Shown here in pieces: positions 3,665 through 57,720 of a stretch of 64,000 nucleotides of DNA. The position numbers and the translations under genes are program-made. The notes below the pieces were generated by a model that was not told where the DNA came from, made no database searches, and worked only from the letters and a program-made list of their open reading frames with translations. Numbering within the stretch: position 1 is the first letter of the stretch; every line of letters begins with the position of its first letter. Origin of the DNA: Desulfuromonadaceae bacterium. Its GTDB lineage: Bacteria > Desulfobacterota > Desulfuromonadia > Desulfuromonadales > JAAYDE01. The stretch is from assembly GCA_012512925.1 (NCBI GenBank), contig JAAZDE010000101.1, positions 7,326 to 71,325 on the forward strand, read 5' to 3'.

Positions 3665-4624
3665 TCATGTTTTTTTTCCGGAAGTTCGCAGGTAGTGGAG
3701 GGAATCGGCCTCGAAGGGTCGCGGGTCGATCCCAAAAACCTTTTTCCATTCCTGTTCCGGACACTCATTTCCCTCCAGCAACAGTTCCAACTGCGTTCGG
3801 GTGAGCGGAAAAAGGGGGAGGTTTTCCCCCAGGCTGGCCAGCGGCCTGGCGATACTTTCCGGAATGAAGATCTTGCCGGGCGTTCTGCGCCCCAAAGATT
3901 CCGCTATGGTGTCGAGAATCCGTGTGTAGGTCAAAGCCGCCGGACCGCAGAGATGAAACTTCCTGCCGATGCTTTGCCGGGCTGAGAGAGCGGCCACGAA
4001 AGCGGCGGCCACGTCCGCCACTGCCACCGGCGCCAGACGGTAGGCGCCGTCCCCGAACACCGGCATCACCGGGGAGAAGCGCAGAACCCGGGCCAGGAGG
4101 TTGACGAAGCCGTCCCCTGGGCCGAAAATGACGGAAGGGCGGAAGATGGTCCACTCCAGGCCGCTTTCGGCGACGGAGCACTCCGCCCGCCATTTGGTCG
4201 CCAGATAGGGATTTTGCGTTTTTTCCCGGCAGCCGTTGGCGCTCATCTGGAGGAAACGCCTGACTCCCTGGTTTTGCGCCGCTCGAACCATGTTCAGGGT
4301 GGCCTGGAAATGCAGCTTTTCAAAGGTCACACCGCGGGAAGGGATTTCGCGGATGATGCCGATCAGATGGATTAACGCCTCACAGTCCGCCAGAGCCCCT
4401 TGCAAAGATTGCTCTTCTCTTGCATCCCCTTCATGAATTTCCAGGTCGATTCCACGCGGCAGCTTTCCTGCCGAACCGGGACGGATCAGACAGCGGACGA
4501 TATATCCCGCGCCAACCAGACGGCGCACCACCTCGCGGCCGACGAATCCCGTCGCGCCGGTGAGGAAAACCCTGTGCACCGCACCTGTTCCGTCCTTCAT
4601 CTCAATCGGCGTCATTTCGTTCAT
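3665..4624 (-). CDS. NAD(P)-binding SDR, NDUFA9/NmrA-like epimerase-dehydratase family
   Basis: Rossmann motif GATGFVGREVVRRL near the N-terminus and YxxxK (YLATK). ATG 4624 overlaps the rtcB stop (ATGA). The track ORF extending to 5068 is an Arg/Pro-rich artefact running inside rtcB. Confidence 0.75.
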   Translation of the reverse strand: MNEMTPIEMKDGTGAVHRVFLTGATGFVGREVVRRLVGAGYIVRCLIRPGSAGKLPRGIDLEIHEGDAREEQSLQGALADCEALIHLIGIIREIPSRGVTFEKLHFQATLNMVRAAQNQGVRRFLQMSANGCREKTQNPYLATKWRAECSVAESGLEWTIFRPSVIFGPGDGFVNLLARVLRFSPVMPVFGDGAYRLAPVAVADVAAAFVAALSARQSIGRKFHLCGPAALTYTRILDTIAESLGRRTPGKIFIPESIARPLASLGENLPLFPLTRTQLELLLEGNECPEQEWKKVFGIDPRPFEADSLHYLRTSGKKT

Positions 4625-6069
4625 CCTTTGATGACGATCAGCGGCTGCAAGCGAGCGACAATCTTTCCGATGCCGGCTTCCTGGACCACTCCCACCACCT
4701 CCGCCACATCCTTGTAGGCGGCCGAGATCTCCTCGGCCAGGGTGGCGTAGCCGGCGGCGCGGACGATGATCCCCTGCTTGGCCAGTTCGGCGGCGATGCG
4801 GTGGCCGCGGGCCTCTTTCTTGGCGGCGTGGCGGGACATGACCCGTCCGGCGCCATGGCAGGTGGAGCCGAAGGTTTCCTTGTAAGCCTCCTGGGTGCCC
4901 ACCAGAACATAGGAATAGCGCCCCATGTCTCCCGGGATCAGTACCGGCTGCCCCACGGCGCGATAGACGGCGGGGATGTCGGGGTGCCCCGGCGGGAAAG
5001 CGCGGGTGGCCCCCTTGCGGTGAACACAGAGACGGCGCTCCCGGCCGTCGAAGGGATGGGTCTCCCACTTGGCGATGTTGTGGCAGACATCGTAGACCAC
5101 CGAAAGCCCCAGGTCAGCGGGCCCTTTTTCCACAACCCGCTCGAAGGATTCCCGCACCCAGGCGGTGATCAACTGGCGGTTGGCGAAGGCAAAATTGGCC
5201 GCGCAGGCCATGGCCGCCAGATATTCCTTCCCTTCGGGACTGGACAGGGGGGCGCAGCAGAGCTGACGGTCGGGAAGTTCGATGCCGTATTTCTGGCTGG
5301 CGCGGTGCATGACTCGAAGGAAATCGTCACAGACCTGGTGCCCCAGGCCGCGGCTGCCGGTGTGGATGGTAACCGTGACCTGGTCGCGGAACAGGCCCAA
5401 GGCGGTGGCAGCGGTTTCATCGTAAATTTCGGCCACCAGATCGACCTCGATGAAGTGGTTGCCGCTGCCGAGGGTGCCGAGTTGGCTCCGGCCCCGTTCC
5501 AGGGCTTTCTCCGAAAGCAGTTCGGGGCGTCCCTCCGGCAGGCACCCCTGTTCCTCGATCCGGTCAAGATCCTCGAGTGTGCCGAAGCCCTGGTTCACCG
5601 CCCAACGGGCGCCCTGGCTCAGCACGCGGTTTTCGTCCTGGCGGGAGAGTTTCAAGTCACGGCGCTGTGAGCCGACGCCGCAGGGGATGTTGCGGAACAG
5701 GGTGTCAGCCAGTCGCTCTCGCAGACCGTTCAACTCGCCGACAGAGAGTCTGGAACGGAGCAGCCGCACCCCGCAGTTAATGTCATAGCCGACGCCGCCG
5801 GGGGAAACCACCCCCTCTGCCGGATCGAAGGCGGCCACACCTCCGATGGGGAAGCCGTAGCCCCAGTGGATGTCGGGCATGCCGATGGAAGGGCCGACGA
5901 TCCCCGGCAGGGTCGCCACGTTGCAGACCTGTTCCAGTGCCTGCTCCTGTTCCAGCGCCCTGAGCATTTTTTCCGTGGCGAATACCAACCCTTCGGTCCT
6001 CATTTTGCCGAAAGGAGGAATCCGCCACCGGCAGGCGTCGATTCTGTCGATCCTGATTTTCAACGGCAT
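4621..6069 (-). CDS. rtcB: RNA 3'-phosphate/2',3'-cyclic-phosphate ligase RtcB
   Basis: 482 aa. Contains GMPDIHWGYGFPIGGVAAFD, GSGNHF and GSRGLGHQV, the hallmark metal- and GMP-binding His motifs. Confidence 0.95.
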   Translation of the reverse strand: MPLKIRIDRIDACRWRIPPFGKMRTEGLVFATEKMLRALEQEQALEQVCNVATLPGIVGPSIGMPDIHWGYGFPIGGVAAFDPAEGVVSPGGVGYDINCGVRLLRSRLSVGELNGLRERLADTLFRNIPCGVGSQRRDLKLSRQDENRVLSQGARWAVNQGFGTLEDLDRIEEQGCLPEGRPELLSEKALERGRSQLGTLGSGNHFIEVDLVAEIYDETAATALGLFRDQVTVTIHTGSRGLGHQVCDDFLRVMHRASQKYGIELPDRQLCCAPLSSPEGKEYLAAMACAANFAFANRQLITAWVRESFERVVEKGPADLGLSVVYDVCHNIAKWETHPFDGRERRLCVHRKGATRAFPPGHPDIPAVYRAVGQPVLIPGDMGRYSYVLVGTQEAYKETFGSTCHGAGRVMSRHAAKKEARGHRIAAELAKQGIIVRAAGYATLAEEISAAYKDVAEVVGVVQEAGIGKIVARLQPLIVIKG

Positions 6070-6111
6070 TCCTTTGCGGTCAACTTGATCCGCGGTTTTC
6101 CTGCAACCCTG

Positions 6112-6564
6112 CTATAGATCCACGTAGAGACGGGCACGCCAGCCCCGATTCTTTTTTTCCACAGTCAAAAGGTGATAGGTCACTGCCTTGACCTCGCGCA
6201 ATACCCGAAATCTTCCCTCGGCAAAGGTGGTGCCGCCGACCAAGGCTGTCAGCTCCTCTCTGCCGATCCGTTTTATGCCAAAAGTAAGGGGGACGAAGCG
6301 GCGGGTTTCAAAGAGGAAAAGGAGTTCGTTCAGCCAGGTGACAAGCAGTTCCTCCACATCCTCCCCCGCCAAGGTGATCCGTTCCTCCCGGTCGGGGCTT
6401 CCGGCCGGGATCTCTCCCAAAATCATCTTCCGCAGGCCTTCGGCGGCATGGAGGAAAAGATCTTCCAGGGTCGCCCCCGTCACCTCAAGCCCCATATCGG
6501 CGGTATGTTCCAGGAAGCGGAAATTAACCAAGGAACCTCTCGCGCTCCGTTTTTGGCCTGCCAT
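6112..6564 (-). CDS. Archease (RtcB activator)
   Basis: 150 aa. FRFLEHTADMGLEV N-terminal motif, and C-terminal KAVTYH...ARLYVDL typical of archease. Confidence 0.9.
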   Translation of the reverse strand: MAGQKRSARGSLVNFRFLEHTADMGLEVTGATLEDLFLHAAEGLRKMILGEIPAGSPDREERITLAGEDVEELLVTWLNELLFLFETRRFVPLTFGIKRIGREELTALVGGTTFAEGRFRVLREVKAVTYHLLTVEKKNRGWRARLYVDL

Positions 6565-6567
6565 CCG

Positions 6568-7104
6568 CTACTCTTCCCGCTCCCAGAACACCCGGCAGCG
6601 GGCATGATCCTGATCCCAGGAAACCTGCAGTTCTCCCTGCTGGGCCTTGTGAACCGCCCTGCCGAAATGTTCCGCCAGCTTCTGTTCGGTGGTCCTGATG
6701 ACCAGGTCGTCCCCCTCCCGCTCCATGGAGATGATGCGCTGCAGAGGGTTTTTGCCCCTGGCTTTGGCCTCCTCGTGGCGGATCAGGTTGCGTATTTGTT
6801 CCTCATGTTTCCACAGGAAAGTACCCCGCAGGGTCACGATCCCTTCCGCGTAATCCCCGGCAATCTTGCGGCAGGCCGGACAGAGGACACTGGCGAGCCC
6901 CTCATCCTTTTTCCTCTTATCCGCAACCTCCTTGTCGATTCGCCAGCGTTTGTTTTCGTAAATGGCATGGCAATCGGGGCAGACCGCCGTTTCCGGCATG
7001 CCCTCTTTAGGGATAAACGGATCCTCGCTCCGCTCCACTCGTCCCTGTTTGTCGCCGATACCGAATTTGTGAACGCTCTGTCCCGGAATGAAATCCCGTT
7101 TCAT
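6568..7104 (-). CDS. Zinc-ribbon protein, bacterial NMD3-like (BCAM0308-type) family
   Basis: Two CxxC pairs (CPDCHAIYENKRW ... CPACRKIAGDY). The start at MKRDFIPG is preceded by GAAGGGAG, and the track start 7215 is an extension. The stop lies 3 nt before the archease ATG. The family name is from memory. Confidence 0.6.
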   Translation of the reverse strand: MKRDFIPGQSVHKFGIGDKQGRVERSEDPFIPKEGMPETAVCPDCHAIYENKRWRIDKEVADKRKKDEGLASVLCPACRKIAGDYAEGIVTLRGTFLWKHEEQIRNLIRHEEAKARGKNPLQRIISMEREGDDLVIRTTEQKLAEHFGRAVHKAQQGELQVSWDQDHARCRVFWEREE

Positions 7105-7127
7105 AGGCTTTCTCCCTTCGTTAGCCG

Positions 7128-7143
7128 GCAATTCCAAGTGCCA
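7128..7143 (-). promoter_or_regulatory. Sigma-54-like -24/-12 element upstream of the Zn-ribbon/archease/rtcB operon
   Basis: The minus strand reads cTTGGCACttggaaTTGCCg. The TGGCAC and TTGC boxes are present, but the spacer is one nt longer than the canonical TGGCAC-N5-TTGC. The element sits ~24 nt upstream of ATG 7104. Confidence 0.3.
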
Positions 7144-7319
7144 AGGCTCTATGGAAATTATAGCATTTTCCAATTCATTGTCGCCGCCGTCAAAGGATGA
7201 ACGGGTTGCGGACAAGGCCCCAGAAAGGCTAATAGGCTGGACTTTGATTCATTGTTTACGGTATGTTCTGGGAGATTCCCCCCACCGCAATAAATGATCA
7301 TTGGAGGAGGTTAAGCAGA

Positions 7320-27868: not shown

Positions 27869-27945
<77 letters not shown>

Positions 27946-27968
27946 AATAAATACCAAAAAACGCAGTA

Positions 27969-27997
27969 TTTATCATTCAATTCGGCTTCTTTGTCAA
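27969..27997 (-). promoter_or_regulatory. Sigma-70 promoter for tRNA-Arg
   Basis: The minus strand reads TTGACA-17 nt-GATAAA, about 24 nt upstream of the tRNA 5' end. Confidence 0.45.
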
Positions 27998-28005
27998 CAA
28001 TTTTC

Positions 28006-28041
28006 AAAAAACGCCCGCTCCATCCGGGTGTCCATGGAGCG
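28006..28041 (-). terminator. Rho-independent terminator after tRNA-Ser(GCU)
   Basis: The minus strand reads CGCTCCAT-ggacacccgg-ATGGAGCG followed by GGCGTTTTTT. Confidence 0.6.
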
Positions 28042-28052
28042 CAGCAAAAAAT

Positions 28053-28145
<93 letters not shown>

Positions 28146-31588: not shown

Positions 31589-31664
31589 GAGCCGCTAGCT
31601 CAGTTGGTAGAGCATCTGACTTTTAATCAGATGGTCGTTGGTTCGACTCCAACGCGGCTCACCA
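31589..31664 (+). tRNA. tRNA-Lys (anticodon UUU)
   Basis: GAGCCGC/GCGGCTC acceptor, anticodon loop CTTTTAA, GGTTCGACTCC T-arm, encoded CCA. Confidence 0.9.
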
Positions 31665-31669
31665 TTCAG

Positions 31670-31747
<78 letters not shown>

Positions 31748-49151: not shown

Positions 49152-49227
<76 letters not shown>

Positions 49228-57472: not shown

Positions 57473-57578
57473 GTGACAGCCAGGCGCCCCTGCGGCACAC
57501 GAAAAATGTCGTTACCGCTGCTCCCTTCCGGGCCTGACGGAGTTGGCGACCTTCCGTTGCACAGGACCCGGCTGTCAC
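57473..57578 (-). ncRNA. ffs: Signal recognition particle RNA (small 4.5S type)
   Basis: The minus strand contains GUCAGGCCCGGAAGGGAGCAGC, matching the conserved domain IV GUCAGGUCCGGAAGGAAGCAGC of E. coli 4.5S. Its partner strand is GUGUGCCGCAGGGG...CUGGC. The closing helix is GUGACAGCC/GGCUGUCAC. It occupies the classic position upstream of dnaX-ybaB-recR. Confidence 0.85.

Positions 57579-57631: not shown

Positions 57632-57720
<89 letters not shown>

Follow-up and report, generated by a model that had tools for sequence, protein, structure and literature searches.

RtcB ligases encoded beside archease are known from operons of diverse bacteria and archaea, the enzyme of Thermus thermophilus being the characterised archease-dependent bacterial representative (PMC3973293, PMC4604427). 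As established for these families, RtcB seals RNA ends bearing a 2',3'-cyclic phosphate or a 3'-phosphate to 5'-OH ends, and archease promotes the GTP-dependent guanylylation of the active-site histidine of RtcB, enabling the ligase to perform multiple turnovers. What bacterial RtcB enzymes repair and how they find it is known for a few systems only (RtcR-RtcBA and PrfH-RtcB2); in the latter, from E. coli ATCC25922, a small ribosome-directed protein helps the ligase encoded next to it to repair cleaved rRNA on the ribosome (PMC9223846, PMC13166195). Here we describe an archease-rtcB operon on a stretch of 64,000 nucleotides from a Desulfuromonadaceae bacterium (contig JAAZDE010000101.1 of assembly GCA_012512925.1, positions 7,326 to 71,325; the whole stretch is called the window hereafter, and positions are counted from its first letter), in which the pair is preceded by a gene for a Zn-ribbon protein of the BCAM0308 family and followed by one for a short-chain dehydrogenase/reductase (SDR). 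What is new is the leading BCAM0308 gene of the operon, which is found order-wide in Desulfuromonadales and constitutes a lead for a new RtcB partner, not a new type of system.

Results

The locus consists of four genes on the minus strand. The Zn-ribbon gene comes first (ATG 7104 to TAG 6568, 178 residues), followed after 3 nt by the archease gene (ATG 6564 to TAG 6112, 150 residues) and, after a further 42 nt, by rtcB (ATG 6069 to TGA 4621, 482 residues), while the last gene, at 3665..4624 with its TGA stop codon at 3665, encodes an NDUFA9-like extended SDR. Reading of the minus strand and hidden Markov model (HMM) searches bore out the four gene identities and the tight packing that a first-pass annotation of the window had put forward. 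Its statement that the SDR is translationally fused to RtcB depends on the start codon: it holds for ATG 4624, where the SDR gene overlaps the rtcB stop codon (ATGA), and fails for ATG 4615, which lies 5 nt past this stop codon, is preceded at better spacing by an AAGGA Shine-Dalgarno sequence and serves as start for the NCBI protein P0269 (316 residues, 'NAD(P)H-binding protein [Desulfuromonadaceae bacterium]', 100% identical to the SDR). The two genes are tightly coupled whichever start applies.

One genome per species was scanned for relatives of the Zn-ribbon protein, which yielded 80 loci, the closest 52 of them from Desulfuromonadales or from bins clearly belonging there. Archease lies directly 3' of the Zn-ribbon gene and on the same strand in 50 of these 52 loci, and the order Zn-ribbon, archease, rtcB, on whose synteny in relatives the first-pass annotation made its claim depend, is kept in 49, the fiftieth archease locus ending at a contig edge. 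The gaps are short, with a median of 38 nt between the Zn-ribbon and archease genes (100 nt or less in 43 of 49 loci) and of 34 nt between archease and rtcB (48 loci; 100 nt or less in 41). Across Desulfuromonadales loci the Zn-ribbon protein diverges down to 45% identity and RtcB ranges from 68 to 92%. The nearest upstream neighbour, on the other hand, belongs to 23 different families among 46 loci, and the lon-thiL flank of the window is common to just four. Because the flanks have been reshuffled (at least 23 contexts) while the trio, its short gaps and a single promoter position (see below) persist to 45% Zn-ribbon identity, selection seems to act on the joint expression of ligase and Zn-ribbon protein. 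The SDR gene, to which the first-pass annotation applied the same condition, lies 3' of rtcB in 34 of 42 informative loci (seven further loci end at a contig edge), at a median distance of 52 nt, with 100 nt or less in 28 of 33; it is missing despite sequence past rtcB in eight (L019, L024, L030, L032, L036, L041, L045 and L052). In two contigs of metagenome-assembled genomes, L004 (9046-10490) and L046 (8976-10340), rtcB is recovered as several tblastn segments in different frames, reflecting either frameshift sequencing errors or pseudogenes.

A probable sigma-70 promoter, GCGACA-16 nt-TG-n-TATAAT, precedes the Zn-ribbon gene at 7157..7184 on the minus strand (-35 at 7184-7179, 16-nt spacer, TG at 7165-7164, -10 at 7162-7157). 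It scores 10/12 in a consensus scan, in addition to its extended TG, and its -10 element ends 52 nt before the ATG. Of 44 related loci, 35 have the extended -10 sequence TGnTATA[ACT]T 5' of the Zn-ribbon gene, with a median distance of 43 nt to the start codon; upon shuffling the average is 0.25 loci. The 200 nt in front of archease (0 of 49 loci), rtcB (0 of 49) and the SDR gene (0 of 33) do not contain this sequence, and between the operon genes of the window we found neither a sigma-70-like promoter at 10/12 nor an intergenic terminator. Since the conserved promoter persists beside ever-changing upstream genes, a single unit would begin at the Zn-ribbon gene, and the four genes are most likely one sigma-70-driven transcription unit that is read through to the end; promoter conservation provides comparative evidence for read-through, from which we infer co-transcription. 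A terminator-like hairpin with a T-run (GGGGGAAAACCTCCCCC TTTTT) is located inside the SDR coding sequence (3814-3830, minus strand), about 150 nt before the stop codon.

Just 5' of the Zn-ribbon ATG there is also a sigma-54-like sequence, TGGCAC-N6-TTGC (7143-7128, minus strand), which could be taken to place the operon under an E. coli-like regime, i.e. as a sigma-54-dependent unit governed from a distance by an RtcR-like activator responding to damaged tRNA. We find this hardly credible: the spacing is one base too long, the motif occurs in 0 of the 80 related loci (the closest, L001, included), neither a sigma-54 activator nor RtcA is encoded within the window, and the conserved sigma-70 extended -10 accounts for transcription. 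A sigma-54 promoter was rejected in view of the spacing and of the absence of the motif from relatives, and the motif is probably due to chance. The lack of RtcA and RtcR had been singled out in the first-pass annotation; as a statement about the window it is correct (tblastn of the 64 kb revealed no RtcA, no sigma-54 activator of the bacterial enhancer-binding type and no second RtcB), but it is no oddity, because archease-dependent RtcB operons are an established type (PMC3973293, PMC4604427).

The core of the operon is conventional. RtcB matches the Pfam RtcB family (PF01139) over its full length (590 bits, cutoff 27; model positions 1-426 of 426), and its closest sequence in the PDB is T. 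thermophilus TTHA1785 (E 4e-186), followed by P. horikoshii RtcB. In an alignment with these two proteins the motifs GYDINCG, GSGNHF, HTGSRG, CHN and STCHGAGR are identical, and every metal-binding and guanylylation motif is retained; the corresponding residues of the P. horikoshii enzyme we take to be Asp95, Cys98, Asn202, His203, His234, His329 and His404. Archease likewise matches its Pfam family at full length (PF01951, 125 bits, model positions 1-136 of 136), scores 85.8 bits against the NCBIfam equivalog PRK00407, i.e. under the cutoff of 126, has MTH1598 and P. horikoshii archease as PDB matches and retains the EHTADMG and VKAVTYH motifs. We predict that RtcB is a ligase joining RNA 3'-phosphate or 2',3'-cyclic phosphate ends to 5'-OH ends, that archease is the activator of its guanylylation and turnover, and that the pair is an ordinary archease-dependent RtcB ligase of the Thermus type.

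The SDR matches the Pfam families Epimerase, NAD_binding_10 and NmrA, and its nearest relatives in the PDB are NDUFA9 subunits of complex I (E 1e-29 to 1e-14). The nucleotide-binding motif TGATGFVG (G20/G23/G26) along with S125, Y137 and K141 (YxxxK) is invariant in 11 orthologues, operon-linked as well as stand-alone. In Geobacter, Brevibacillus, Nitrospinae and Rokubacteria, orthologues at 45-50% identity stand alone among unrelated genes, and in the loci examined the Pfam families listed around them name no complex I subunit. A dedicated role of the SDR in RNA ligation is unlikely, because its orthologues stand alone and a fifth of the informative operons do without it; the protein is most likely a loosely attached passenger, as judged from these comparisons. 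A more intimate role can nonetheless be imagined by analogy with human RTCB, which needs the NAD(P)H-dependent oxidoreductase PYROXD1 as a protector before archease-mediated guanylylation (PMC12263435). The SDR would then be a functional analogue of PYROXD1, guarding the oxidation-sensitive cysteine and the metal centre of RtcB in an NAD(P)H-dependent manner, and the quartet would comprise ligase, activator, protector and targeting factor. The intact NAD(P)-binding motif and Ser/Tyr/Lys triad would suit such a function, as would the position of the gene, which is separated from rtcB by 0-5 nt here and by no more than 100 nt in the 28 of 33 loci mentioned above. We nevertheless regard the analogy as very improbable: the two proteins differ in fold, PYROXD1 being a flavoprotein, no Pyr_redox Pfam model matches the SDR, orthologues that share its invariant residues (at 45-50% identity) are found where no RtcB is near, and the gene is absent from eight informative operons. 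Adjacency is what supports the analogy.

The Zn-ribbon protein belongs to the 'BCAM0308 family' of NCBIfam (NF040826; 151 bits, cutoff 100, model positions 8-153 of 153) and matches Pfam NMD3 (PF04981; 35 bits, cutoff 24.9) over model positions 131-220 of 243 only, so that both similarities named in the first-pass annotation were recovered; the Pfam scan returned nothing beyond this single partial NMD3 match. Its four cysteines, arranged in two CxxC pairs (C42/C45 and C75/C78), are invariant in an alignment of 40 sequences and are predicted to bind zinc. In a confident AlphaFold2 model computed from 40 sequences (predicted local distance difference test, pLDDT, 83; predicted template modelling score, pTM, 0.75), residues 1-24 are disordered and are followed by a small beta-rich Zn-ribbon with the four invariant cysteines and by a C-terminal alpha/beta domain. 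Sequence searches of the PDB, whether with a profile or a single sequence, yielded no meaningful match. NMD3 itself comprises a complete N-terminal Zn domain and C-terminal eIF5A-like SH3 and OB domains in about 400-500 residues, and has four CxxC pairs as compared with the two found here. Identity as an NMD3 orthologue was rejected, as the protein has 178 residues, matches part of the N-terminal model only and misses the rest of the architecture. The family is a large one: 1013 clusters at 50% identity match with E<=1e-3, and a profile recovers 1754 clusters at 90% identity. Most of the family members listed carry a precomputed PF04981 assignment, and some are annotated at source as 'NMD protein affecting ribosome stability'. 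In one member of 308 residues (P0160, encoded at 60-986 of locus L092), the BCAM0308/NMD3-like domain is fused to a C-terminal Ribosomal_S30AE domain, i.e. that of the hibernation factor HPF/RaiA, which hints that the family acts on ribosomes.

Outside Desulfuromonadales, BCAM0308 genes keep other company. Neighbours other than RtcB are found in the 28 remaining genome loci (L053-L080; from Nitrospirota, Armatimonadota and further groups) as well as in two Geopsychrobacteraceae loci, and five more family members, whose encoding contigs were looked up singly, have no adjacent RtcB. A separate scan of metagenomes that started from a distant subclade provided 80 further loci, in 71 of which a gene of the MTH1187 family (PF01910) lies directly upstream of the BCAM0308 gene. 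RtcB occurs near the BCAM0308 gene in L165 alone (1 of 80), where RtcB and archease are 3.5-4.4 kb off and on the other strand. Conservation of the quartet in other phyla, which the first-pass annotation had named as a point to check, was therefore not observed (0 of about 30 non-Desulfuromonadales genome loci, and L165, with RtcB on the opposite strand, as the sole metagenome case). When 69 neighbours of Zn-ribbon genes outside the operon were scanned against Pfam, no dominant family emerged; the calling of open reading frames had missed MTH1187 there, which was found by tblastn. Other recurrent contexts are a phasin gene with UbiB and either an AIR-synthase-like gene or an AmmeMemoRadiSam radical SAM gene. 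On the Azospirillum plasmid p3 (L175) the gene stands in a row of Hsp20, BCAM0308, nicotinate phosphoribosyltransferase (PncB) and phosphoribosyl pyrophosphate synthetase with a universal stress protein nearby, and on a replicon of Burkholderia sp. FXe9 (L176) it lies between a BON-domain gene and genes for FtsH, a B12-dependent ribonucleotide reductase and phosphofructokinase, with RbbA upstream. These proteobacterial contexts are stress or low-oxygen loci, the Burkholderia arrangement being as in the lxa locus (PMC3721108).

Such variety raises the possibility of operon hitch-hiking, in which the Zn-ribbon protein (e.g. a general stress or dormancy factor) and the SDR (a housekeeping reductase) are unrelated to ligation and the shared promoter goes back to one inherited ancestral rearrangement. 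The restriction of the RtcB association to one order speaks for it, as do the other conserved partners of BCAM0308 elsewhere (MTH1187 in 71 of 80 loci, phasin with UbiB, Hsp20, BON, FtsH), the stand-alone SDR orthologues and the 8 of 42 informative loci without an SDR gene. However, the trio, the short gaps and the promoter position have been kept through at least 23 flank contexts and down to 45% Zn-ribbon identity, and we hold hitch-hiking to be a possible explanation that deserves to be taken seriously but is not the one we favour.

Several further observations concern the BCAM0308 loci and the window. The pair formed by MTH1187 (PF01910, 'thiamine-binding protein') and BCAM0308 was seen in 71 of the 80 loci L095-L174 (e.g. 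L163 7414-7716) and also in eight Nitrospirota genome loci (L057, L061, L067, L072, L073 and L078-L080), beside prfC and the mraZ-rsmH-ftsI cluster. In L165 (1469-4531), MTH1187, RtcB (46% identity to the window RtcB) and archease share one strand. Locus L093 (1415-7425) holds a co-oriented run of an AIR-synthase-like gene, BCAM0308, an AmmeMemoRadiSam radical SAM gene, MTH1187, RtcA, HGPRT and an APH/AAA_33 kinase-like gene, in which a bona fide RtcA is encoded three genes downstream of the Zn-ribbon gene. Relatives of the APH/AAA_33 gene lie directly after rtcB in L019 (10583-11845) and near rtcB in L041 and L045, all three being loci without the SDR; the links to RtcA and to APH/AAA_33 in L093 are single cases and may be due to chance. 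In the Geopsychrobacteraceae loci L033 and L034 (5573-8495), the BCAM0308 gene is preceded by a NifU-like gene and an open reading frame of 400-410 codons. As to the window, G+C amounts to 62-66% over rtcB and into the 5' portion of the SDR gene (4001-6000) as compared with 51-59% in the neighbouring Zn-ribbon, archease and lon-promoter regions; possible causes are a different origin or, the protein being highly conserved, its amino-acid composition. The four operon proteins had no match in a PADLOC search, and a reading of the operon as a defence system was rejected on this account. The window also holds genes for a bacterial signal recognition particle RNA and for six tRNAs (Arg-ACG, Ser-GCT, Lys-TTT, Glu-TTC, Asn-GTT and Ser-GGA), at positions 57475-57573, 27869-28145, 31589-31747, 49152-49227 and 57633-57720. 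None of the six tRNAs has an intron according to ARAGORN, and the window therefore offers no tRNA-splicing substrate for RtcB.

Discussion

Taken together, our results are best accommodated by a four-gene unit with a conventional archease-dependent RtcB core, in which the Zn-ribbon protein is an RNA- or ribosome-directed accessory and the SDR a passenger, a reading in which, as a whole, our confidence is evenly balanced. According to this reading, Desulfuromonadales would have recruited a gene of the BCAM0308 family into an archease-rtcB unit, and the operon is most likely a single stress-repair transcription unit. The ends to be sealed would be breaks in tRNA or rRNA caused by stress-induced or toxin ribonucleases; archease would drive guanylylation of RtcB, and RtcB would join the ends, in the manner established for their families. 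The Zn-ribbon protein, co-produced with the ligase, would bind RNA or ribosomes, where it might deliver the ligase to broken RNA on ribosomes, hold them or act alongside in the same stress recovery. The SDR, which looks active and comes from a widespread family of NAD(P)H oxidoreductases encoded as stand-alone genes, would ride along in the transcript. That the Zn-ribbon protein is probably an order-specific accessory directed to RNA or ribosomes is suggested by comparative sequence evidence, and such a role is plausible because of its partial homology to NMD3, the fusion to HPF, the stress-locus contexts of its family and the precedent of PrfH-RtcB2 (PMC9223846, PMC13166195). The 'expanded RNA or ribosome repair module' of the first-pass annotation gains from the synteny of the Zn-ribbon gene and loses the SDR, which looks like a passenger, while the module itself stays conjectural.

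A number of observations weigh against an accessory role in RNA repair. Foldseek comparison of the Zn-ribbon model with the PDB gave 0 matches at E<=0.001 and did not clearly recover NMD3, so it is the HMM match that carries the relationship to NMD3. The top natural matches, weak at E>0.001, were pre-60S chains of 243 and 245 residues and 80S ribosome chains of about 100 residues; from their lengths we suspect the former to be eIF6/Tif6 rather than NMD3, and the latter are presumably eL22. Fusion to HPF was seen once, on a contig of 1.8 kb. RtcB adjacency was seen in none of about 120 non-Desulfuromonadales loci with BCAM0308 relatives, and even within Desulfuromonadales the Zn-ribbon gene stands elsewhere, and not ahead of archease-rtcB, in L033, L034, L053 and L054, so that the link between Zn-ribbon protein and RtcB could represent one inherited gene arrangement. 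As for the transcription unit, a pattern scan revealed no terminator 3' of the SDR gene, and the fold z-score there is -1.4. Finally, the literature searched gave no experimental function for any BCAM0308 member, BCAM0308 itself appearing there as a row of an expression table (PMC4981469). Co-expression with the ligase does not prove joint function of the Zn-ribbon protein.

The favoured reading can be sharpened into one in which the BCAM0308 Zn-ribbon protein serves bacteria as a ribosome-docking factor that is akin to the N-terminal part of NMD3 or left over from it, recognises damaged or idle ribosomes and steers archease-activated RtcB to broken rRNA or ribosome-bound tRNA. In this specific form we deem it rather unlikely. 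If it were true, the operon would be an analogue of PrfH-RtcB2 with an unrelated adaptor, and a first function would be assigned to a family of about 1000 clusters found in stress or dormancy loci of many phyla; if the partner were unrelated to ligation, the 'expanded module' would instead be a lineage-specific operon arrangement and not a general system. The substrate targeting of RtcB has a testable candidate in a partner that is conserved across an order, shares the promoter of the ligase and has a ribosome-binding factor among its relatives. Such a partner would also offer a first functional handle on the BCAM0308 family, including the gene of the Burkholderia low-oxygen persistence locus.

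How, then, does the operon compare with systems already described? In the literature searched, from which the main comparative survey of RNA-repair operons was outside coverage, there is no description of NMD3, COG1499 or BCAM0308 together with RtcB or archease, nor of an SDR partner. Akin to the archease-RtcB operon of T. thermophilus and P. horikoshii (PMC3973293, PMC4604427), the locus has a co-oriented adjacent pair, all catalytic motifs and no RtcA or RtcR, but here a BCAM0308 Zn-ribbon gene leads under the sole recognisable promoter and an SDR gene usually comes after rtcB. With rtcBA and RtcR of E. coli and Salmonella (PMC7790460) it shares the central RtcB ligase and a presumed role in stress repair, whereas the RtcA cyclase, the CARF/sigma-54 activator and the sigma-54 promoter are missing from the window, which has archease and a sigma-70-type promoter instead. 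The Zn-ribbon protein resembles NMD3, the eukaryotic and archaeal factor for 60S export and maturation (PF04981; PMC7363849, PMC10068337), in a partial N-terminal HMM match that includes the CxxC...CxxC Zn site; it differs in being bacterial, in having 178 residues as opposed to about 500, and in lacking the eIF5A-like SH3 and OB domains. BCAM0308 of Burkholderia cenocepacia, from the lxa locus (PMC3721108; PMC4981469), is a small stress-associated protein of the same NCBIfam family, but is about 25-34% identical to the window protein and has BON, FtsH, B12-dependent ribonucleotide reductase and phosphofructokinase as neighbours, not RtcB and archease. The closest parallel to the role proposed here is PrfH-RtcB2, provided that BCAM0308 proteins do bind ribosomes, as we infer; there the ribosome-directed partner is a release-factor homologue and RtcB2 is archease-independent, whereas in Desulfuromonadales the corresponding part would be played by a Zn-ribbon/NMD3-like protein.

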